Shown: positions 4,612-53,667, counted from the first letter of the stretch. The stretch is 64,000 bases of DNA from PVC group bacterium (GCA_043804695.1 JAZDIV010000048.1:1-64000), one strand, 5' to 3'. The notes: generated by a model not told the origin, from the letters alone. Made by a program: numbers and translations.

Positions 4612-4718
4612 AAAACACAAAATACCGAGTCGGGTCCCGCGCGCGAAGATCCACATCCCTGTTCCCGAAGAGGCCCGGGCTCGGAGTTTAACTTTTATAA
4701 CAAACATGATTCAGGAAG

Positions 4719-5840
4719 GTGATGAAAGTGAACCCGATTATTGAAAAGATGCGAAAAGACCCGGAATATTCCCGTTACGCCCTGCCGATCAACGAAGATG
4801 AAGATTTCCGGGATGCCATGTATTTTCTAAAAGATGACGGAACATTCATCTTTTCCGAGGGGTACTATCATCAGATCGAGAAACCCCGGGAGGAGAGGAT
4901 CGTCAATTCCCATTATTTTTACGTACCTCTGGACCCCGCCCGGAAGGTGCCGAAACACTGTATCAAGAAATTTTTCGGGCTGCCGTTCGAGAACATCACG
5001 AGAGACATCATGGAGAACGAGCCGCTCGATCAGCTCTACCCGTTGCAGCTGGCAAGATACATCGAGCTGGACCCGACCCAGAAAGAGATCGAGAGGCCGG
5101 TCTACGGGATATACAAGGCCCGGGTCCCCCTGACCTCGCTGGTGGCGTACTTTCCCCATAGAAACTCCCTGCAGCGCATCATGGAGAAAGCCGGCGAGGA
5201 CCTGGTCGCCGGCAAGATCAAGACCATCGCCGAGCACACGGCCGACCTGCTGGAGACCGACATCTCCCAGCTCGGCATTTCCGGCTCCGTCTCCCTGGGG
5301 ACATACGCCAATCCGCACGACCTTGATTTCGTTGTCTACACCTCCACCCCCGAGATAAAAAGGATCGTCGACTTCATGTACACCCTGACCGACGGGAACG
5401 AGGAACGGCAGGTATACGAATTCGGCAAGTACTGGCCGATCCGGTTCTGGGACCGGGTGGGGGATGAGAGATTCATGGTCTGCCCCTTCTTCTCTTTCCT
5501 CGATCCGGAAGAGGCTCCCCTGCGAAACTTCGACTGCGAGGATCGGGGGCCGGTTGTCGTGGAGGCCACCGTCGCCGACGACACCTTCAACGCCGTCAAC
5601 CCCACCATCCTGATGTTGGAGGACGTGAAGGTCGCGGGGAAGGCTGATCCCGAAATCAACCGCCTGATCATCCACCACGGGGCGGAGCGGGGAGACTGGC
5701 GGGAAGGGAACCGAATCCGGGTGAAGGGCCACCGGGTCTGGATCAGGACTTACCGGGTCGTCGAAAAGCAGCGTCAGCCCCTGGATGAGTACATCGCCGT
5801 TATGGAGGACAACCTGGGCGATGTCCGGCTGGCGGAGTAG
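4719..5840 (+). CDS. Predicted Pol-beta-superfamily nucleotidyltransferase (archaeal COG1665-like)
   Basis: LGISGSVSLG...HDLDFVVY = hG[GS]x9-13DhD motif; beta-rich C-terminus suggests an OB fold. Confidence 0.6.
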   Translation: MMKVNPIIEKMRKDPEYSRYALPINEDEDFRDAMYFLKDDGTFIFSEGYYHQIEKPREERIVNSHYFYVPLDPARKVPKHCIKKFFGLPFENITRDIMENEPLDQLYPLQLARYIELDPTQKEIERPVYGIYKARVPLTSLVAYFPHRNSLQRIMEKAGEDLVAGKIKTIAEHTADLLETDISQLGISGSVSLGTYANPHDLDFVVYTSTPEIKRIVDFMYTLTDGNEERQVYEFGKYWPIRFWDRVGDERFMVCPFFSFLDPEEAPLRNFDCEDRGPVVVEATVADDTFNAVNPTILMLEDVKVAGKADPEINRLIIHHGAERGDWREGNRIRVKGHRVWIRTYRVVEKQRQPLDEYIAVMEDNLGDVRLAE

Positions 5841-9213: not shown

Positions 9214-9339
9214 TATTTACATCAACGATTGCGGTCATTGCGAGCGCAGTGAAGCAATCTCTTGCTGTGCATAGAGTTGAGATTGCTTCGTCGCTCCGCT
9301 CCTCGCAATGACATGTCCATACAATTATGGACTGACTAA
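9196..9339. mobile_element. MITE family 1, full copy
   Basis: Imperfect TIRs TTAATCCGACCGT / ATGGACTGACTAA, TA on both sides, internal RPE-like palindrome. Confidence 0.8.
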
Positions 9340-9341
9340 TA

Positions 9342-9434
9342 AAATAGGGGTCGCGTCTGCCCGCGGCTGATTTCGTTCCATTTCCTAATGAGGTCTGATA
9401 GGTAATTAGCCGGGAGCAGACGTGACCCCTATTT
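9342..9434. repeat. REPIN-like inverted repeat pair
   Basis: ATAGGGGTCGCGTCTGCCCGCGGCTGATT and AATTAGCCGGGAGCAGACGTGACCCCTAT are near reverse complements; a single arm also occurs at ~5939-5967. Confidence 0.7.
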
Positions 9435-10682: not shown

Positions 10683-10790
10683 TTTTTATTTTTCCTCCGG
10701 AATAATAAAAAATATCAGGCTAATATAAAAGTTACATAGTGGGGGGGAGATGTGGGCTGGGGTGTTAAAGATGTCTTTTAATTGTGCAGC

Positions 10791-10967
10791 CTAGTGTCAC
10801 GTCTCAGAAATGTCTTGAATATTTTTGTCATTGCGAGCCGAAGCCGCGAGCGCAGCGTGGCGGGCAGCGAAGCAATCTCAATTCGTTGCAATACAATAGA
10901 TTGCTTCGTCGCTCTGCTCCTCGCAATGACCGAATTATCTAATGCGATTTCCGAGACGGCACACTAG
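10791..10967. mobile_element. MITE family 2 with internal RPE-like palindrome
   Basis: Ends CTAGTGTCACGTCTCAGAAAT / ATTTCCGAGACGGCACACTAG (18/21 inverted match). Confidence 0.75.
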
Positions 10968-13886: not shown

Positions 13887-14873
13887 TTACCATCTGACCA
13901 GCGACGCCGCCCAGGTCAGTCCGCCCCCGAAGGCGACCATCAGGAGCAGATCGCCCCTCTTGAGAACTCCATTGTGATCCATCTCCGCCAGGCCGACCGG
14001 GACCGTCGCCCCGGACATGTTCCCATAGCGGTCCACGTTGATGTAGACCCGCTCTTCCGGTATCTTCAGGCCCTTGGCCACCGCTTTCATGATTCTCAGG
14101 TTCGCCTGATGAGGGAGAAGCCAGTCAACATCCTGCGGGGTCAGGCCGGCCTGGCTCAGGACCCGCCGGGCGGCGGAGACCATGGAGGAAACGGCGAGCT
14201 TGAAGACCTTGTTTCCTTCCATCCGTATGTACTGCCGGCGCTGGTCAAGAATCTGGTGAGTGATCGGGCAGGCTGAGCCGCCGGCTTCCACCTGCAGAAG
14301 CGAAGAGTACGCCCCGTCGGCCCCGATATAACAGTCGACGATCTCGCCGTTAGCCGCGCCCTTGCTCAGGACCGCCGCCCCGGCGCCGTCGCCGAAAAGA
14401 ACGCAGGTATTGCGATCCTCCCAGTCCGTCATCACCGAGAGCACTTCCGAGGCCGCGACCAGGGCGTGGCGGTATCTTCCCCCGCGCAGCAGCTTTTGTG
14501 CCAGCTCCAGGGCATAAATGAAACCGCAGCAGGCGGCGGAGATGTCGAAACAGGCAGCGGTCGTGTTCCCCAGCCGGGCCTGAAGCAGGCACGCGGCCGC
14601 GGGGAGCGGTGCATCGGGGGTAAAGGTGCCGAGAATGATCAGATCAAGCTGCTCCGGCTTCAGGCCGGCGCTTTTCAGGGCCTGCCGGGACGCTTGCTCG
14701 GCCATCGAGGCAGCCGTCTCTCCGGGAGCGGCAATCCGCCGCTCATTGATGCCGGTCCGGGCCAGAATCCATTCATTCGACGTGTCGACCATCTTCTCCA
14801 GGTCGGCATTGGTCAAGACTTTCTCGGGGACGTAAAAACCCGTTCCTGCAATCCCGATTTTTTCCTGGGCCAT
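13887..14873 (-). CDS. fabH: 3-oxoacyl-ACP synthase III
   Basis: AACCGF, FGDGAGA, PHQANLRI, YGNMSGA, AFGGGLTW. Confidence 0.96.
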   Translation of the reverse strand: MAQEKIGIAGTGFYVPEKVLTNADLEKMVDTSNEWILARTGINERRIAAPGETAASMAEQASRQALKSAGLKPEQLDLIILGTFTPDAPLPAAACLLQARLGNTTAACFDISAACCGFIYALELAQKLLRGGRYRHALVAASEVLSVMTDWEDRNTCVLFGDGAGAAVLSKGAANGEIVDCYIGADGAYSSLLQVEAGGSACPITHQILDQRRQYIRMEGNKVFKLAVSSMVSAARRVLSQAGLTPQDVDWLLPHQANLRIMKAVAKGLKIPEERVYINVDRYGNMSGATVPVGLAEMDHNGVLKRGDLLLMVAFGGGLTWAASLVRW

Positions 14874-16636: not shown

Positions 16637-16870
16637 ATAAATTAGCGCCTCCGGCGCTAATTTAGAAGAATTGGAGTGAATTGTACCTTTTAAACGTGTA
16701 ACAGACTGATAATTACCCAAGAATTAGTTTGAACGCAGCTGCTCAATAAACAACGGTAAGCCCTTAGTGTAATAAAACAAAATATTTTTTCCTGGTTGCT
16801 TTTTCGCCTGTTTCGGGAGTTCAATAATTGGATCTTTCCGATTATTGAAATTCCGAAACATGAACTTAGC
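16637..16870. repeat. Intergenic cassette type D, copy 1
   Basis: Highly similar to 33355-33595; carries both shared cassette ends. Confidence 0.85.
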
Positions 16871-17007
16871 TTCGCAACTGTGGGAGGGCTTTCCAAGCCC
16901 GATAATCGGGGTTCATCGGGGCTCCATTCGTTCTGCGGCGGGCACCGTTCGACGTTGGGCGTTGAACGTTGAACGTTGAACGTTCATTGTTCGATGTTCA
17001 TCCCTCC

Positions 17008-19082: not shown

Positions 19083-19302
19083 ATAAATTAGCTCGCTGCG
19101 CTCGCTACTTTATAATGGACCCGATTGATTCAATCGGGGTCTGTTGGTTAATTAAGATATTTTCACCGAGGCAACAATATACAAAAGCCTTTCCAACATC
19201 AGCCAACATTTGTCTTCCGGGATATGATTTTTCTGTTGGCTTACGGTAACCCACTCTGATTTTTTCGAAGAAAAAATCAGATTATTGAAATTCCGAAACA
19301 GC
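19083..19302. repeat. Intergenic cassette type E, copy 1 (promoter-bearing)
   Basis: Similar to 49235-49410 and 53337-53530; ends in TTATTGAAATTCCGAAACAGC. Confidence 0.8.
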
Positions 19303-25734: not shown

Positions 25735-26060
25735 AGATCAGATAATCAGTAGGGAGTTGATCAGGAAATACATAAGAAGGTTATCGGATGATCAGGAAAT
25801 CAGCAGGCAGATTATCGGGGTATTAAGGTTATCAGTCAGGGGGGCTCGCAATCTGATCACCTGATCTTCCGGTATCCCTTCCAAGGATATCAGATGATCA
25901 GGAAATCAGTAGGCAGATGATCAGGGTATAAGGTTATCAGGCAAGGGGGCCTCGCAATCTGATCACCTGATCCTCCGGTATCCCTCCCACTGATACCCTG
26001 ATCACCTGATATCCCTTCCTTAGGTATCCCTCCCACTGATATCATGTTTTCCTGATACGC
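25735..26060. repeat. Long ATCAG/CTGAT repeat tract with an internal ~90 bp duplication
   Basis: GATGATCAGGAAATCAG...CTCGCAATCTGATCACCTGATC..CCGGTATCCCT occurs twice. Confidence 0.75.
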
Positions 26061-27805: not shown

Positions 27806-28150
27806 AAATAACTAAGCTCCGCAACTTTTTTGACAGGACGATTTGGGGACAGGACGATTACCCCCAACCTCACCCCCTTTTTAGCAGGACGATTATACGG
27901 CAGGACTATTAATTATAAGGGTTTTATTTTGTCTGAATTATTTATCCTTCATCGTACTGTCGATAAATCGTCCTGCTTATACTCAGGAGAACATTAAATA
28001 GTACACATGTCATTGCGAGGAACGAAGTGACGAAGCAATCTTAGCCAATTTAAAAACAAGAGATTGCTTCGCTCCGCTCGCAATGACCATCACAAAAGAT
28101 GTAATCTATTTAATGTTCTTCTTAGTAAGTCGATTATTTAAATTCCGAAC
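27806..28150. repeat. Divergent intergenic cassette (type F) with CAGGACGAT repeats, interrupted by a MITE
   Basis: Left end ATAACTAAGCTCCGCAACTT and right end ATTATTTAAATTCCGAAC resemble the shared cassette ends. Confidence 0.5.
27982..28125. mobile_element. MITE family 3 with internal RPE-like palindrome
   Basis: TIRs CTCAGGAGAACATTAAATAG / CTATTTAATGTTCTTCTTAG (18/20), flanked by TA. Confidence 0.78.
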
Positions 28151-28153
28151 ACC

Positions 28154-29531: not shown

Positions 29532-29695
29532 TCAGTCAGTCCATAATTATATGGACATGTCATTGCGAGGAGCGAAGCGACGAAGCAATCTCAACCCCAT
29601 GCGCGGCAAGGGATTGCTTCGCGTAGTCTACCCCGATTTATCGGGGCTCGCAATGACCGCAATCGTTGATGTAATTACTATAACGGTCGGATTAA
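29532..29695. mobile_element. MITE family 1, reverse copy, inserted in a TTTACAC heptamer tract
   Basis: Reverse complement of 9196-9339; TA on both sides; removing it restores TTTACAC-TTTACAC-TTAACAC. Confidence 0.8.
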
Positions 29696-32877: not shown

Positions 32878-32998
32878 ATAAGTTAGCGCCTCCGGCGCAA
32901 CTTGGTGTAAAGTTTAAAGTGGAAAATGTAAGGGATCTTTACACTTTACACCTGACACTTTACACAGCTGTATTGAAATTCCGAAGCAGCAAGTTAGC
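32878..32998. repeat. Intergenic cassette type C, solo copy
   Basis: Nearly identical to 41565-41668; TTAGCGCCTCC at both boundaries. Confidence 0.85.
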
Positions 32999-33354: not shown

Positions 33355-33595
33355 ATAAATTAGCGCCTCCGGCGCTAATTTAGAAGAATTTGGAGTGAAT
33401 TGTACCTTTTAAACGTGTAACAGACTGATGATTACCCAAGAATTAGTTTGAATGTAACTGCTCAATAAACAACGGTAAGCCTTGAGTGTAATAAAATAAA
33501 ACAAAATATTTTTTCCTGGTTGCTTTTTCGCCTGTTTCGGGAGTTCAATAATCGGATCTTTCCGATTATTGAAATTCCGAAACAGGCACGTTAGC
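33355..33595. repeat. Intergenic cassette type D, copy 2
   Basis: Matches 16637-16870; contains the long hairpin GCCTGTTTCGGGAGTTCAATAATCGGA / TCCGATTATTGAAATTCCGAAACAGGC. Confidence 0.85.
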
Positions 33596-39994: not shown

Positions 39995-41218
39995 TCACCC
40001 AGCCAGCGCGATCCGGCAAAAATGCCGTTTGCCCAGCTTGAGAACGTCATTAGCTTTGACCGCGATCAGGGCCTCGTGTTCAACTATTTTTTCTCCGTTT
40101 AAACTGACCGCTCCCTCCTTGATCTTCCGGCGGGCCTCCGCGTTGCTGGAGACCAGCGATGCCTTCCGGAGCAGGGTTACGATGTTGATCATGCCTTCGG
40201 CCAGATCATCCGGCCCCAGCCGGAGAGACGGCATCTCCCGGGGCGCTTTTTTCTTCTGGTGGACCGTCTCAAAAGTCCGCTGCGCCTCGCGGGCGTCCTG
40301 ACTCGAAGTAAACCGTTCGGCGATCTCGAAGGCCAGGTTCTTCTTCCAGATCAGGGGATTGGTCCCCGCGGCGCAGGCCCGCTTCGCCTCTCCGATTTCC
40401 TCGGCGCTCCGATCGGACAGCAGCTCGAAATAGCGCCACATCATGTTGTCGGAGATGGACATTATCTTGCCGTAGATATCCCGGGCCGGCTCGCTGATCC
40501 CCACGTAGTTCCCCAGGCTCTTGCTCATTTTCTGCACCCCATCGGTCCCTTCCAGCAGGGGGAGGGTCATGACCGTCTGCGGGGGCTGCCGGTATTCCCG
40601 TTGAATTTCCCGGGCCAGGAGCAGGTTAAAGGTTTGATCGGTCCCCCCCAGCTCCAGGTCGGACCGGACGATAACCGAGTCATACCCCTGCATCAGGGGA
40701 TAGAGGAACTCCAGCACGCTGATCGGGCGCCCCGCCCGGTAGCGTTCCGAGAAATCATCGCGTTCCAGCATGCGGGCCACCGTATACTTGGAGGTGAGCT
40801 CAATGATATCGGAAAACTTCAGCGGCGAGAGCCAGGAGCTGTTGTAAACCACCTCGGTCTTTTCCCGGTCGAGAATCTTGAACACCTGCTCCTGATAGGT
40901 GCGGGCGTTCTCCATGATTTCGTCCCGGGAGAGGCGGCGGCGGGTCCTGGTTCTTCCGGAAGGATCGCCGACCAGCGCGGTGAAGTCACCGATGATGAAT
41001 ACGACCAGGTGGCCCAGATTCTGGAACTCGCGCAGCTTGCGGAGGGGAACGGTATGCCCGAGATGGATGTCGGGAGCCGAGGGGTCGGCGCCGTACTTGA
41101 CCCGGAGCGGCCGCCCGGAGGAGAGGGAACCTCGGATTTTGACCGCCAGATCGTCTTCCGGAATGATCTCGACGGCGCCCCGCCGGATGATTTTCAGTTG
41201 CTGTTCTACCGGATCCAT
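39995..41218 (-). CDS. tyrS: Tyrosine--tRNA ligase
   Basis: GADPSAPDIHLGH, YPLMQGYDS, GGTDQ, KMSKS, C-terminal S4 domain. Confidence 0.97.
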   Translation of the reverse strand: MDPVEQQLKIIRRGAVEIIPEDDLAVKIRGSLSSGRPLRVKYGADPSAPDIHLGHTVPLRKLREFQNLGHLVVFIIGDFTALVGDPSGRTRTRRRLSRDEIMENARTYQEQVFKILDREKTEVVYNSSWLSPLKFSDIIELTSKYTVARMLERDDFSERYRAGRPISVLEFLYPLMQGYDSVIVRSDLELGGTDQTFNLLLAREIQREYRQPPQTVMTLPLLEGTDGVQKMSKSLGNYVGISEPARDIYGKIMSISDNMMWRYFELLSDRSAEEIGEAKRACAAGTNPLIWKKNLAFEIAERFTSSQDAREAQRTFETVHQKKKAPREMPSLRLGPDDLAEGMINIVTLLRKASLVSSNAEARRKIKEGAVSLNGEKIVEHEALIAVKANDVLKLGKRHFCRIALAG

Positions 41219-41220
41219 CT

Positions 41221-41673
41221 ATAAATTAGCGCCTTCGGCGCAACTTGGTTACGGCCAGGGTAACGATGCCCGTTTCGGCAAAGGTAACGGTAACGGCCAC
41301 TCCGCCTGGCGCACGTAACCGTAACCGGCAGACGAAACCCCGATAAATCGGGGCAGGCTGGGCCTCGTAACCGTAACCGTAGCCGTTATTGAAATTCCAA
41401 AGCAGGAACTTAGCCCTCACTTCGCTCGGGCGACTAAATAAAACTACGAATTACGCGAATTACACGAATTTTCTTTAAAATATCCCTGCACTGTCGGTTC
41501 AATGCTTGCACATTCTTATTTTTCCGGAGGAAAAATAAGATTATTGAAATTCCGAAACAGCAAGTTAGCGCCTCCGGCGCAACTTGGTGTAAAGTTTAAA
41601 GTGTAAGGAATCTTTACACTTTACACCTGACACTTTACACAGCTTTATTGAACTCCCGAAACAGGGAATGAGC
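41221..41673. repeat. Tandem array of three different intergenic cassettes (A 41226-41409, B 41410-41564, C 41565-41668)
   Basis: Junction TTATTGAAATTCC(G/A)AA(A/G)CAG-n4-T(T/G)AGC repeated three times with unrelated interiors. Confidence 0.85.
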
Positions 41674-41857
41674 GCCTTCGGGGATGACTTCTATTCCGGC
41701 AAAGGTTGGGGTGATTACTTCCAAAATGGATATCGGATTATCAGCATATCAGTGGGAAGGACATCAGGAACTTAGGAGAACAGGTAAGGGCTCGGCCTCG
41801 CCTGATAATCTGATATCCTGAGGCCCTTCCCACAGATATGCTGATTCCCTGGTATCC

Positions 41858-43663
41858 TTATTTCTCTTCTCCCCCTTCATCCGCGGGGGCGGTGTCTTCC
41901 CCTGACATTTCAGAAGCCGGGGTGGCCGGCCCGGCTATCGATTCGGCCAGTTTTTCCAGGCCGTCCTTGAGGCGGGTGTCGACATCTTTCATCCGGGGCC
42001 GCACCGTCTCCGCACCGGCGGGCGGTTCCTGCTCCAGCCCTTTTCCCTGGAGATAGTTTTTAATGCTCAGGGCGATCCGCCGCTCGTCCTTATCGATATT
42101 GATCACCTGCGCCTTGACCGCGGCGCCTTCCGCAATGACGTCTTTAATGTTCTCAAACGGCTTGTCGCTGACCTGGGAGATATGCACCAGCCCCTCGATG
42201 CCGGAGTCAAGCTCCACAAACACGCCGAAGCCGGTGACCTTGGTCACCTTCCCTTCGACAACATCGCCCGGCATATACCTGCTGGTGACCTCCTCCCAGG
42301 GATCGATCCCCATCTGCTTGGTCCCCAGGGAGATTTTTTTATTTTCAGCGTCAATCGAAAGAACAACCGCCTCCACCTTGTCGCCCCGCTTGAACAGCTG
42401 AGAAGGATGGGCTATCTTCTTCGTCCAGGACATGTCGGAGACGTGAATCAACCCGTCGATGCCCTCCTCCAGCTCAAGAAACGCCCCGTAGGAGGTCATG
42501 TTCCGGATCTTCCCCTTAACGACACTGCCCACCGGGAACCTGTCGGCAACCTGCGTCCAGGGGTTGACCTCGAGCTGCTTGATCCCGAGCGAGATTTTTT
42601 CTTCTTCCGGCTGAGTCTTCAGGACCACGATCTCGATGACATCGCCGATCGCGAGAATATCGGTCGGGTGGTTGATCTTGCGGGTCCAGGAGAGCTCGGA
42701 GATGTGGACCAGTCCCTCCACTCCGTCTTCCAGCTCGACAAAAGCCCCGTAGGGCATGATGTTCACCACCCGTCCCTGGACTTTCTTGCCGGGAGGATAC
42801 TTTTCGCCCACCGACTCCCAGGGGTTGGGGGTCTTCTGCTTGAGTCCCAATGAGACCCGTTCCCGTTCCCGGTCATACTTCAGAATCTTGACTTCGACCT
42901 CATCCCCCACCGCCAGCAGCTCGGAGGGATGGCTGATCCGGCCCCAGGACATGTCCGTGATATGGAGGAGGCCGTCCAATCCTCCCAGATCTACGAAAAC
43001 CCCGAAGTCGGTTATGTTCTTGACCACGCCTTTCCTGATGTCGCCTTCCGCGATCTCGGAGAGGAGCTTGGTCCGGGCACGGGTGCGCTCTTCTTCCAGA
43101 AGTTCCCGGCGGGACAAAACGATATTCCGCCGGCGTTCATTGATTTTGATGATTTTGAACGCGAATTCCCGGCCCATCAGGCTGTCTTTATCTTTAATGT
43201 AGTGGATGTCGATCTGGGAGGCGGGCAGAAAAGCGTCCAGGCCGATATCGACCATCATCCCGCCTTTCACCCGCCGGGAGATAACCCCGGAAATGCTGTC
43301 CCCTTCCTGATACTGGGAGACGACCCGCTCCCAGTTTTTCAGCTTGTCCGCCTTCTGCTTGGAGATGCAGACCATCCCGTCCCTGTCTTCCAGACGCTCG
43401 AGGAAAACCTCCACCGTGTCCCCGGTCTGGAGGCTGGTCTCGGTCTCAAATTCACTCAGGGGGATCAGGCCCTCGGACTTGTAGCCGATATCGATAACCA
43501 CGTATTCAGAACGGATCCCGTAAATCCGGCCGGTTACCATCTTCCCTTCTTCGAGATGCTGCATGGTCGCCTCGACCATCCCCGCCAGCTCTTCCCGGGA
43601 CATCGTCTCCCCGGCGCCGCTTTCTTGAATCGGTTGGGTTGTTTCGTTCGTCAGTTCCGTCAT
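41858..43663 (-). CDS. rpsA: 30S ribosomal protein S1
   Basis: Six S1 repeats (DGLLHITDMSW, EGLVHISELSW). Confidence 0.97.
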   Translation of the reverse strand: MTELTNETTQPIQESGAGETMSREELAGMVEATMQHLEEGKMVTGRIYGIRSEYVVIDIGYKSEGLIPLSEFETETSLQTGDTVEVFLERLEDRDGMVCISKQKADKLKNWERVVSQYQEGDSISGVISRRVKGGMMVDIGLDAFLPASQIDIHYIKDKDSLMGREFAFKIIKINERRRNIVLSRRELLEEERTRARTKLLSEIAEGDIRKGVVKNITDFGVFVDLGGLDGLLHITDMSWGRISHPSELLAVGDEVEVKILKYDRERERVSLGLKQKTPNPWESVGEKYPPGKKVQGRVVNIMPYGAFVELEDGVEGLVHISELSWTRKINHPTDILAIGDVIEIVVLKTQPEEEKISLGIKQLEVNPWTQVADRFPVGSVVKGKIRNMTSYGAFLELEEGIDGLIHVSDMSWTKKIAHPSQLFKRGDKVEAVVLSIDAENKKISLGTKQMGIDPWEEVTSRYMPGDVVEGKVTKVTGFGVFVELDSGIEGLVHISQVSDKPFENIKDVIAEGAAVKAQVINIDKDERRIALSIKNYLQGKGLEQEPPAGAETVRPRMKDVDTRLKDGLEKLAESIAGPATPASEMSGEDTAPADEGGEEK

Positions 43664-43819
43664 CTCACGTATTCCTTCCTGTTGCGGATATCCCATCCGG
43701 GGACAACCGCCGCGGTTGCGCCGGCCGCTAGGACGACCGGCGGGGTTGTGTTATTTTTGCCGCCCCGGCAAAATCGGGGCGGTAAAAACAACGGTGTATT
43801 TTTGAGCCAAAGGGGGCGG

Positions 43820-44751: not shown

Positions 44752-44911
44752 TCAGTGCCTTCGGCGCAACTCGGTTACGGCAAGGGTAACGATGCCCGTT
44801 TCGGGAAAGGTAACGGTAACGGCCGCCCCGCTTGGCGCACGTAACCTTAACCGGCAGACGAAACAGGCCTCGTAACCGTAGCCGTAGCCGTAGCCGTTAT
44901 TGAAATTCCGA
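44752..44911. repeat. Intergenic cassette type A, solo copy
   Basis: Matches 41226-41400 except for two indels and a few substitutions. Confidence 0.85.
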
Positions 44912-44999
44912 TGATATTCTGATCCCCTTCCCACTAATCTCCTGATTATCTGATCCCCTTATATTATATGACTTTGATCCCCTGATGCTTTTTGTTTCT

Positions 45000-49234: not shown

Positions 49235-49410
49235 ATAAATTAGCTCGCTGCGCTCGCTACTTTATAATGGACCCGACTGCGTCGGGTCTGTTGGTTAACT
49301 AAGATATTTTCACCGAGGCAACATTATAAAAAAGCCTTATAATCTCAGCCAACATTTACCCCATGGAATATAATTTATCTATCGGTTTCAAAAATACCAT
49401 TCTTATTTTT
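49235..49410. repeat. Intergenic cassette type E, copy 2
   Basis: Matches 19083-19260. Confidence 0.8.
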
Positions 49411-49426
49411 TCGCCCCGCCCCGAAG

Positions 49427-50092: not shown

Positions 50093-50249
50093 TTAGCTCA
50101 CTCCGCTCGGGCAATTCAATAGAACTACGAATTACGCGAATTACACGAATTTACTTTAAAATAAGTCAACGATATTAGTTCAATGCTTACACACTATTAT
50201 TTTTTAGCCCCGAGCCAAAGTATTAATCGGGGGAGAAAAAAATAATACA
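50093..50249. repeat. Intergenic cassette type B, solo copy
   Basis: AACTACGAATTACGCGAATTACACGAATTT...GTTCAATGCTT shared with 41410-41564. Confidence 0.8.
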
Positions 50250-50981
50250 TTACTGCACCGCCGCCTCGACCTTCCTGATCATGATCTCGCTGAAATGGCC
50301 CCGCTGGAAAACCTGCACCAGCTTCTGCCGGATCAGCTCCAGCAGGGCTAAAAAAACCACCACCACCCGGGTCCGGGATTCTCCTTTTTCGAACAGGCGG
50401 TGAAACAAAATCGGGCCCCGGCGCTGTAATCTCTCCAGCACCCGGTGACGGCCGTCCTCCAGGGTAAAGTTGTCCGGTTCGAACTCGGGGGGACGCCGTT
50501 TTTCAGCTTCGTTCAAAACCTGGGAGAAAGCGTCGAGCAGCTGGAACAGGTCGATCTCTTCCAGGGGGAGTTCCCGGGAAGGGGGGGCCTCGACGGGAAC
50601 CCGGTTCCGGGGGAAGGTTTTTTCCTGATCCAGTTCCAGGACATGAAAAACGTCCGCCGCCTCCTTAAACTGCTTGTATTCCAAAAGCTGCCGGACCAGG
50701 TCCCAGCGGGGGTCTTCTTCTTCCTCCTCCTCTCCTCTCTCCTCGGGAGGGAGGAGGAGGCGCGATTTGATATGCATCAGCGTCGTCGCCATGGCCAGGA
50801 ATTCACCGGCGATGTCCAGATCGAGGATTTTCATCAGCTCCAGATACTTCAGGTACTGCTCGGTGATCTTCTGGATGGGGATGTTATAGATATCGACCTC
50901 GTTCTTCCTGATCAGGTAAAGCAGGAGGTCGAGCGGCCCCTCGAAAATTTCCAGATGGAATTGCTGGTTTTGGTCGATCAT
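50250..50981 (-). CDS. scpA: Segregation/condensation protein ScpA
   Basis: FEGPLDLLL, IKSRLLLP, FLALLEL. Confidence 0.95.
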   Translation of the reverse strand: MIDQNQQFHLEIFEGPLDLLLYLIRKNEVDIYNIPIQKITEQYLKYLELMKILDLDIAGEFLAMATTLMHIKSRLLLPPEERGEEEEEEDPRWDLVRQLLEYKQFKEAADVFHVLELDQEKTFPRNRVPVEAPPSRELPLEEIDLFQLLDAFSQVLNEAEKRRPPEFEPDNFTLEDGRHRVLERLQRRGPILFHRLFEKGESRTRVVVVFLALLELIRQKLVQVFQRGHFSEIMIRKVEAAVQ

Positions 50982-53336: not shown

Positions 53337-53530
53337 ATTAATTAGCGCCTTCGGCGCTACTTAATAGCGGACCCCGATTGATTCAATCGGGGTCTGTTGG
53401 TTAACTAAAATTCTTACATCGATTCGCCATTATACAAAGGCCCCATAACCTCAGCCAACTTTTATTCTTGAAGTATCCGTTAGCCGCAGGCCACAAGTTT
53501 CACAATTTTTTATTTTTTCACAGAAAAAAT
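53337..53530. repeat. Intergenic cassette type E, copy 3
   Basis: CCCCGATTGATTCAATCGGGGTCTGTTGGTTAA shared with copy 1. Confidence 0.75.
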
Positions 53531-53667
53531 AAAAAACCACGAAGAGCACGAAGAGCACGAAGAGGGAAAAACACCTTATCCCGGTTTTCTTCGTGACCTT
53601 CGCGAGCTTCGTGGCAAATTGCTTTCTTCTGACTGCCGGGAGAATAACTCTCTCCGATCAGACCGGG

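Follow-up and report, generated by a model that had tools for sequence, protein, structure and literature searches.

In a 64,000-nucleotide stretch of a draft genome of a PVC group bacterium (GCA_043804695.1, JAZDIV010000048.1:1-64000; hereafter the window), the gap between the genes rpsA and tyrS holds a tandem array of short repeated elements, which is the subject of this analysis. Both genes were assigned by Pfam matches and lie on the minus strand. The ATG of tyrS (tyrosine-tRNA ligase; 39995..41218) is 3 nt from the left end of the array, and the upstream gene rpsA, encoding ribosomal protein S1 with six S1 domains, occupies 41858..43696. On the plus strand, the 639-bp gap opens with three head-to-tail units (A, B, and C), whose interiors are mutually unrelated and are each a long imperfect hairpin. 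At the left of every unit stand a tetranucleotide (TAAA, GAAC, and CAAG, respectively), then TTAGC, then a short GC stem-loop; its right boundary is the 20-nt motif TTATTGAAATTCCGAARCAG. We refer to this right-end motif as T and to the left end, NAAN-TTAGC plus GC stem-loop, as H1. Element A (family 7 in the clustering described below; 41222..41405, plus strand) has the left end TAAA-TTAGCGCC-TTC-GGCGC-AACTT and consists of H1 (about 41222-41247), its long imperfect hairpin, and T (41386-41405). Near 41339-41359 it carries a nested insert of ~21 nt that resembles repetitive extragenic palindromic (REP) sequences and is missing from the other 4 copies. Element B (family 4; 41406..41560, plus strand) starts with GAAC and TTAGCCCTCACTTCGCTCGGGC, and its interior terminates in an AT-rich hairpin before T at 41541-41560. 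Element C (family 5; 41561..41664, plus strand) starts with CAAG and TTAGCGCC-TCC-GGCGC, has a hairpin interior of the GTGTAAAG type, and ends in a variant T, TTATTGAACTCCCGAAACAG, at 41645-41664. After this last T follows a degenerate hairpin, GGAATGAGCGCCTTCGGGG..., at 41665..41690 (plus strand). The remainder of the gap includes GATATC/CTGATA-rich repeats at 41793-41857, which also occur at 2403-2467 and 25950-26014 of the window. With up to 3 mismatches allowed, T occurs 9 times in the window against 0.01 expected, and none of 100 shuffled sequences reached 9. The array of three unrelated interiors joined by a repeated junction, which an initial annotation made from the sequence alone had described, is real, with the coordinates given here.

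The initial annotation had also listed single copies of A, B, and C and further elements D, E, and F with the same ends and the same orientation. An element was indeed found at every site named, whereas the shared right end was not found at several of them. Element D (16638..16861, plus strand) combines the complete hairpin TAAATTAGCGCCTCCGGCGCTAATTTA with a conserved body and, at its right end, a palindrome (16808-16861) that consists of the reverse complement of T, 13 nt, and T; it is followed by a truncated unit of family 3, the interior of which is a REP doublet. The second D element (33356..33585, plus strand) is 94-97% identical to the first, and the palindromic right ends of the two account for both minus-strand matches among the 9 T motifs. 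The solo C copy (32879..32989, plus strand; 85-98% identity) is followed from 32990 by the hairpin-like CAAGTTAGCGCC, and the E element at 19084..19301 (plus strand) has an intact T. The solo A copy (44752..44915, plus strand; 91% identity over 119 nt) retains the first 15 nt of T, which is truncated there by a GATATC/CTGATA-rich repeat. The solo B copy (50093..50250, plus strand; 82% identity over 108 nt) lacks T and has a REP-like insert within its AT-rich hairpin, and the E copies at 49235..49420 and 53337..53535 (both plus strand) lack T as well. Element F (27806..28153, plus strand) has divergent ends, a degenerate T, and a nested hairpin repeat of the GCAATCTC type. Two other kinds of hairpin were seen beside these elements. 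One is a separate repeat, CGAAGCAATCTC...GAGATTGCTTCG followed by GCTCCTCGCAATGAC, at 50-149, 9250-9349, 10868-10930, 28031-28071, and 29581-29621 of the window, which is also nested in the F element and flanks copies of family 1. The other comprises ten AT-rich hairpins, TTATTTTTC-loop-GAAAAATAA, at 10683, 22930, 25177, 28151, 33018, 37937, 41513, 53507, 56028, and 60555; some form the 3' part of B or E interiors, and others stand alone after genes in a terminator-like position.

Across the source draft genome (G000; 2.97 Mb in 155 contigs, 88% complete) T occurs 160 times, 80 times on each strand, so that the single orientation seen in the window does not extend to the genome, where orientation tracks the neighbouring gene. 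In 53 of the 160 occurrences T is an arm of a palindrome of the D type (reverse-complement T, 13 nt, T), and the other 107 are single. Clustering of the 80 nt upstream of the single motifs gave 11 interior families with 14, 13, 12, 11, 9, 6, 5, 5, 4, 2, and 2 copies, plus 24 singletons; T thus closes at least 11 families of interiors. Lengths agree within a family (for example 157-167, 139-148, and 104-113 nt), and none of the interiors contains an open reading frame (ORF). D is a further family of ~235 nt and about two dozen copies, with the complete hairpin, the conserved body, and the palindromic right end described above. Boundary precision was assessed as mean pairwise identity in 6 families with 3-9 copies each. 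At the left end it rose from 0.19-0.46 over the 30 nt beyond the boundary to 0.64-0.92 over the 30 nt just within; it was 0.86-0.95 in T and dropped to 0.27-0.44 from +10 to +40 past T. These steps at both ends in all 6 families bear out the precise cassette boundaries proposed at the outset.

The complete hairpin palindrome, with arms AAATTAGC and GCTAATTT and a variable loop, occurs ~170 times in this genome. Elements also nest: a double hairpin of ~29 nt, TGCGCCAGAGGCGCATCAGCCTCAGGCTG, interrupts T in several independent copies. It enters T at the same point in these copies, TTATTG / AAATTCC (C40:78, C122:39468, C27:2462, C46:12317, and C9:22744), and is another small site-specific repeat that targets T. 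A seemingly large class of elements with the hairpin end and without T was dropped as a category, since in E and in family 0 these are mostly copies whose T is diverged, truncated, or interrupted. The REP doublet that forms the family 3 interior is free-standing at 17 of its 26 loci, and it is one of several interior hairpins with free copies. Such free-standing interiors fit capture by one-ended transposition and later nesting equally well. A full-length insertion sequence (IS) between inverted T motifs was also considered and set aside, as no pattern of transposase-sized ORFs was seen there.

The two ends are unrelated in sequence and, as the initial annotation had stated, there are no terminal inverted repeats. 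Of 37 elements with a unique left flank, 35 have a left end that starts with NAAN followed by TTAGC and the GC stem-loop; the starting tetranucleotides are TAAA (17), GAAC (11), CAAG (4), TAAG (3), and others (2). Very similar tetranucleotides follow the right end. After 136 outward-facing T ends the next four bases were TAAA in 24 cases, GAAC in 22, CAAG in 18, CAAA in 7, and TAAG in 4. Among the 78 T ends without a downstream hairpin, GAAC or CAAG follows in 14 cases against an intergenic background of 0.64% (p 1.5e-16), and [CGT]AA[ACG] follows in 31 against 4.1% (p 7e-23). Left and right tetranucleotides are identical in only 7 of the 37 elements, so they do not represent a 4-bp duplication, and a flanking direct repeat of at least 4 nt was found in none of the 37. 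Since the ends are not inverted repeats of each other and flanking direct repeats are absent, we rejected a classical MITE (miniature inverted-repeat transposable element).

This combination of ends and target resembles what is known of the IS91 family; the papers cited here and below by PMC number were available as excerpts. Members of this family are described as having distinct origin and termination ends (oriIS and terIS), no target duplication, 1-2 subterminal palindromes at oriIS, and a GC-rich stem-loop at the left end (PMC13181058, PMC3189936). The family targets are given as 5'-CTTG/GTTC beside oriIS, that is, GAAC/CAAG on the other strand (PMC13181058), and IS801 is reported to use GAAC, GGAC, CAAG, or CGAC as its target and to have a left end that starts with GAAC (PMC3189936). 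One-ended transposition is described as frequent in the family, with miniature fragments of the right end or the recruitment of adjacent DNA as its outcome (PMC13181058, PMC3189936). As a comparator with a transposase gene we used a multi-copy IS91-family element on Piscirickettsia plasmid NZ_CP039243.1, the ends of which were set where six copies diverge. Read in the sense of tnpA, it starts with CAAG-AATAGGCTCGCACAGCTCGCGACTTT and ends with TTTTTTGAAATTCCTGAATC, followed by TAAAT. Of 26 aligned positions, its left end shares 20 with H1 of family 2 (AATTAGCTCGCTGCGCTCGCAACTTT), and its right end (TTTTTTGAAATTCC...) aligns with T plus TAAAT; in neither comparison did any of 5000 shuffles reach the observed score; left-versus-right cross-controls gave chance-level scores. 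Both termini are therefore homologous to those of a transposase-bearing IS91-family member. The initial annotation had recognised no named family, and by its own terms the idea of an unknown system falls with this match of the ends. The same Piscirickettsia element has, directly upstream of its full copy, a tandem duplicate of 290 bp from its left end (about 4985-5274 versus 4699-4988), so that left-end-to-left-end stacking is also found in a classical member of the family.

We consider it probable that the cassettes derive from an insertion sequence of the IS91 family, a rolling-circle element with a HUH Y2 transposase, and are themselves non-autonomous and MITE-like. In this model T, with or without the subterminal palindrome, would serve as oriIS, and the tetranucleotide with TTAGC and the GC stem-loop as terIS. 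By analogy with IS91 and IS801, the transposase would nick between the target tetranucleotide and T, displace one strand up to the hairpin end, and insert it next to a further TAAA, GAAC, or CAAG, which reads NTTN on the strand being moved. One-ended transposition may have captured the interiors, enclosing them between a T end and the next terminator of the hairpin type; alternatively, they may be REP-like repeats that nested later. Because the left end begins with a tetranucleotide of the target class, the left boundary of a resident copy, or the foot of a solo hairpin, would itself be a target. Insertion at a resident left boundary would then produce the T/NAAN-TTAGC-hairpin junction without extra bases, and thus a head-to-tail stack. 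Seven such stacks exist in the genome, namely six doublets and the A-B-C triplet, which is the largest. The earlier proposal that each insertion regenerates its target thus agrees with the shared class of left-end and target tetranucleotides and with these seven precise stacks. Of the 37 elements with a unique left flank, 29 have an A just ahead of their left end, which fits insertion at the foot of a pre-existing ATAAATTAGC hairpin. A complete hairpin, the arms of which co-vary, is usually present after the last T and would fit the original target; at the rpsA-tyrS gap, the degenerate hairpin at 41665-41690 is probably the remnant of such a target. In sequence, a ter-ori circle junction would be indistinguishable from a tandem junction. 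Among the public sequencing runs listed for the region, two DNA runs contain small shares of it (0.07 and 0.05), and there is no RNA run.

The initial annotation had placed the mobilising enzyme outside the window, and this is where the only candidate of the matching family was found; the mobiliser is likely a HUH-type enzyme. Candidate enzymes in the source genome comprise 6 Y1_Tnp matches, one IS110-type transposase (contig C43), XerC/XerD-type recombinases, an IntI-like remnant (C32), and a single IS91-family match (C70). The C70 gene is decayed. An N-terminal piece of 144 aa with a zinc finger and an HxH motif scores 165 bits with the NCBIfam model for IS91 family transposases (cut-off 125) and matches Pfam Zn_Tnp_IS91 (E 3.9e-26) and Y2_Tnp. 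It is followed by an internal deletion and a C-terminal piece (RYYG...CPQC), the TAA stop of which lies inside the left arm of a palindrome; the right arm of this palindrome is T, and GAAC-TTAGC comes directly after it. Upstream, the gene is preceded by an end of the H1 type. The right ends of D and C70 share 60 of 63 nt (palindrome plus T). Homology of the D body to the transposase gene was rejected, as only the palindrome and T align and blastn with 7-nt words gave short, non-collinear matches with E of 0.02 or more. With tblastn, the C70 piece matched 4153 plasmid records, and the examples listed are annotated as IS91 family transposase. Among metagenome relatives the best match was 47% identical. 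Y2 loci on C20 and C21 of G001 (a genome of the same genus), on C45 of G004, and in G007 and G002 were examined and discarded, being GC-rich or without T-like ends. At metagenome locus L122 a T-like motif followed by TAAA lies just 3' of a frameshifted tnpA; about 0.5 such cases are expected by chance, and we did not use it as evidence.

Several observations weigh against this derivation from an IS91-family element. No intact transposase gene with H1/T ends was found in 9 genomes of the family, including the source genome (88% complete), G001, G003, and G004, nor at 26 metagenome loci, and T-like ends are missing from the other Y2 genes of the family genomes. The elements may be orphans, or their partner may be unassembled. 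Many copies have a truncated, interrupted, or missing T, and much of the population may be fossil. About 145 of the ~170 complete hairpins have no adjoining T, and the model does not account for their origin. Nor does a simple version of it predict that the left tetranucleotide varies between TAAA, GAAC, and CAAG within one family. The subterminal palindrome expected at the origin end is present in D and in the C70 remnant, and the other families have a family-specific hairpin in its place; most families retain only the terminal 20 nt of the origin end, after their own hairpin. Experiments on IS91 itself used 82 bp of the origin end (PMC13181058). Finally, the strand of the IS91 target relative to tnpA was taken from the published descriptions, in the excerpts available, and from the one Piscirickettsia element.

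We then considered the distribution of the elements among 41 genomes, counting T with at most 2 mismatches and exact matches of the hairpin. By this count the source genome has 147 T motifs and 87 hairpins, G001 has 131 and 46, G003 148 and 44, and G004 30 and 3; the other 37 genomes have 0-6 and 0-2, respectively. As a pair, T and hairpin are thus confined to this genus and to two related genera within an uncultured lineage of the PVC group, and the two ends travel together. Public genome records that carry T include metagenome-assembled genomes of candidate genera of Candidatus Auribacterota. The presence/absence polymorphism among relatives that a mobile element should leave was found between the source genome and G001. 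The window is collinear with one contig of G001 in 29 blocks of 75-93% identity, and in 28 syntenic gaps T is present only in the source genome in 3, only in G001 in 3, and in both in 2. The 347-bp F element corresponds to an orthologous gap of 11 bp in G001. At the rpsA-tyrS gap, G001 has a C-like unit and another unit in place of A-B-C, and two other genera have unrelated repeats. At the 32878 locus the start-adjacent hairpin is common to both genomes and the interiors differ. Copies of B in G001 are 92-100% identical over 66-183 nt, compared with 80-82% for the flanking genes, which suggests recent spread or constraint.

The position of the hairpins relative to genes was unexpected. For 139 intergenic hairpins the nearest gene end is a start in 93 cases and a stop in 46, and for 48 of those 93 the called start codon is no more than 5 nt away. 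All 54 start-adjacent hairpins, which end 0-5 nt upstream of a start codon, have a purine-rich loop on the mRNA strand (GGAGG, GAAGGGAG, or GAGCGCAGCGAG; an example is TAAATTAGCGCCGGAGGCGCTAATTTATAATG), and none has the opposite orientation. The 3' end of the 16S rRNA reads CCUCC. Spacing between hairpin and ATG varies by 0-3 nt, so the start codon lies outside the repeat. Of 126 non-palindromic left ends, 94 point toward a gene start; for those that have T within 320 nt the figure is 30 of 39. As left ends face gene starts and the window genes are mostly on the minus strand, this coupling accounts for the uniform orientation in the window. It also mostly explains a bias of 70:37 toward the strand with negative GC skew, which we therefore did not retain as a replication-strand effect. 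The tyrS start is kept in three related genomes (G001, G003, and G004), and the four tyrS orthologues have no recognisable Shine-Dalgarno sequence in the 12 nt before the ATG, except for the hairpin loop where present. This suggests that translation-start signals of the lineage are unusual. Read on the gene strand, the hairpin also conforms to the pattern of a simple terminator.

Judged from the sequence, the termination-end hairpin may be able to act as a ribosome-binding site. Its Shine-Dalgarno-like loop and A/T spacer would explain why insertion directly before a start codon is tolerated. A bolder proposal, which we put forward only tentatively and regard as somewhat doubtful, is that the mini-elements are mobile translation-start cassettes that replace a gene's own ribosome-binding site, with the ~145 solo hairpins as leftovers used by the host. 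Under this proposal insertion would occur between the gene's own ribosome-binding site and its start codon, and the Shine-Dalgarno sequence and A/U spacer of the hairpin would substitute for the displaced signal. If this is true, selfish DNA could settle and stack in the most constrained intergenic position, even before the essential gene tyrS.

The placement at gene starts is also what would be expected if the repeats were host regulatory leader modules (RNA hairpins, terminators, or ribosome-binding cassettes) duplicated by recombination, with the IS-like ends being secondary. The 48 of 93 hairpins close to a start, the loop orientation in 54 of 54, the terminator pattern on the gene strand, and the higher conservation of B than of its flanking genes between species all speak for it. 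Yet the elements precede unrelated genes, have sharp boundaries, and vary in presence between species; they prefer GAAC/CAAG flanks and have their right end in common with a transposase remnant. Rfam covariance models matched only rRNA and tRNA at the gathering score and overlapped no element at E up to 1, and a consensus scan of 41150-41900 gave no sigma-70-type promoter-like site against 0.9 expected. We therefore regard this explanation as unlikely; host co-option is compatible with an IS91-family origin and does not replace it. Two related suggestions were dropped. D was considered as a small RNA gene, but it has no Rfam match and its apparent -10 box is unsupported; a sigma-54 or sigma-70 promoter in D and B failed because the GG-N10-GC upstream of the palindrome is not conserved across D copies. 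As a separate observation in the window, 14515-14610 (plus strand) matches the NiCo riboswitch aptamer over the full length of the model, though below the gathering score (30.3 bits against 37; E 0.0097).

Other mobile systems would have to explain the same two ends. In a mosaic of the REP or bacterial interspersed mosaic element (BIME) type, spread by a REP-associated tyrosine transposase (RAYT, a Y1 HUH enzyme), the hairpin would be the REP. In favour of this, of the 6 Y1_Tnp matches in the source genome, 5 were scanned with the NCBIfam model for REP-associated tyrosine transposases, two scoring above the cut-off and three below, the family 3 interior is the GTGGGAGGGG...CCCCGAT REP doublet that flanks the RAYT gene on C62, and REP-like pieces are nested in elements A and B. 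The C62 gene (C62:5669-6157; 134 bits with NCBIfam, cut-off 80) and its bracketing GTGGGAGGGG...CCCCGAT repeats, which recur more than 100 times and in the window at about 16880-16925, make up a genuine system of RAYT and REP doublets forming hairpins (REPINs). However, neither the hairpin nor T flanks any of the 6 RAYT-like genes, each of which has other repeats beside it, two different ends with a GAAC/CAAG target are not RAYT features, and both ends align with IS91-family termini, which makes spread by RAYT very unlikely. An IS200/IS605-type element, moved by a Y1 TnpA and inserting 3' of a fixed penta- or tetranucleotide, would share the subterminal hairpin, the asymmetric ends, and the lack of target duplication, and the 70:37 skew bias could be read in its favour. 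Known elements of this type have similar hairpins at both ends, whereas here only one end has one; no IS200-type tnpA adjoins these ends, and the skew bias is explained by the coupling to neighbouring gene direction (94 of 126). We accordingly hold this to be highly improbable, and the RAYT/IS200 idea raised by the initial annotation found no support in the 6 Y1 genes. Its integron-like idea, in which gene-less cassettes with T plus hairpin as attC would be moved by an integron integrase, draws on the one-way arrays with a conserved junction and on the IntI-like remnant on C32 (TIGR02249, 183 bits, below the cut-off of 265); the ORF concerned (C32:273-1178) matches the IntI model in two separated pieces and is probably a decayed intI. 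But on either strand the order of the hairpin arms, with GTT in the 5' and AAC in the 3' arm, is opposite to that of attC (R''...AAC to GTT...R'), the interiors have no ORFs, elements stand singly at more than 100 loci and not in one array beside attI, and the ends match IS91 termini. Of the explanations weighed, we rate this one the least probable. The IS110 alternative is likewise unsupported, the genome having one DEDD transposase match (C43), the flanks of which were not inspected for H1/T.

Insertion sequences of the IS91 type are mostly known as gene carriers of low copy number that mobilise the genes beside them. If the cassettes are derived from such an element, IS91 chemistry can yield a high-copy, gene-less, and modular repeat population in an uncultured PVC-group lineage, and left-end and target tetranucleotides of one class would provide a simple rule for precise head-to-tail stacking. 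Hairpin ends on ribosome-binding sites would offer a testable case of transposon ends as translation signals. Such repeats also break assemblies and may be mistaken for integron cassettes, CRISPR-like arrays, or regulatory RNAs, so that recognising them aids the annotation of such genomes. The main text of the paper describing the candidate phylum makes no mention of 'transposase' or 'repetitive', and in the literature the only published IS91-family MITEs found were the IS801 miniatures.

Compared with IS91, IS801, and IS1294 as described in the available excerpts, the present elements share two functionally different ends without terminal inverted repeats or target duplication, a GAAC/CAAG-type tetranucleotide abutting the end downstream of tnpA, a left end made of a target-class tetranucleotide and a GC-rich stem-loop, and, in D and the C70 remnant, a subterminal palindrome at the origin end (PMC13181058, PMC3189936). 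They differ in that the copies are gene-less, 100-240 nt long, and present at ~150 per genome, in that most keep only 20 nt of the origin end, and in that TAAA is a main target besides GAAC and CAAG. Non-autonomous Helitrons and Helentrons of eukaryotes, such as DINE-1, are, according to the excerpts of PMC4067079 and PMC7492417, likewise HUH elements of the rolling-circle kind: their ends are asymmetric, with a subterminal hairpin where replication terminates, they cause no target duplication, their interiors are captured or repetitive, and they reach a high copy number; they belong to a Rep/helicase lineage with eukaryote hosts and another scale, so that the resemblance is one of working principle only. 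With REP/BIME sequences and REPINs the elements have in common that they form intergenic mosaics of short hairpin modules that nest and make up arrays; the REPIN/RAYT system of this genome coexists with them and supplies at least one interior, whereas the shared ends are not REPs. The IS801 miniatures of Pseudomonas syringae (Bardaji et al. 2011, PMC3189936), which arise by one-ended transposition, are, as described there in part, short, non-autonomous, and mobilised in trans, and combine the right (origin) end with a left boundary that resembles the target tetranucleotide; IS801 is also described as able to take up DNA next to it. Those miniatures are plain right-end fragments of the insertion sequence in few copies, while the elements studied here fall into at least 11 families with unrelated hairpins as interiors, share a conserved hairpin at the left, stack head to tail, and occupy a fixed place at gene starts. 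Relative to the literature found, what is new is the high copy number, the modular hairpin interiors, the regular stacks, and the fixed placement on translation starts.

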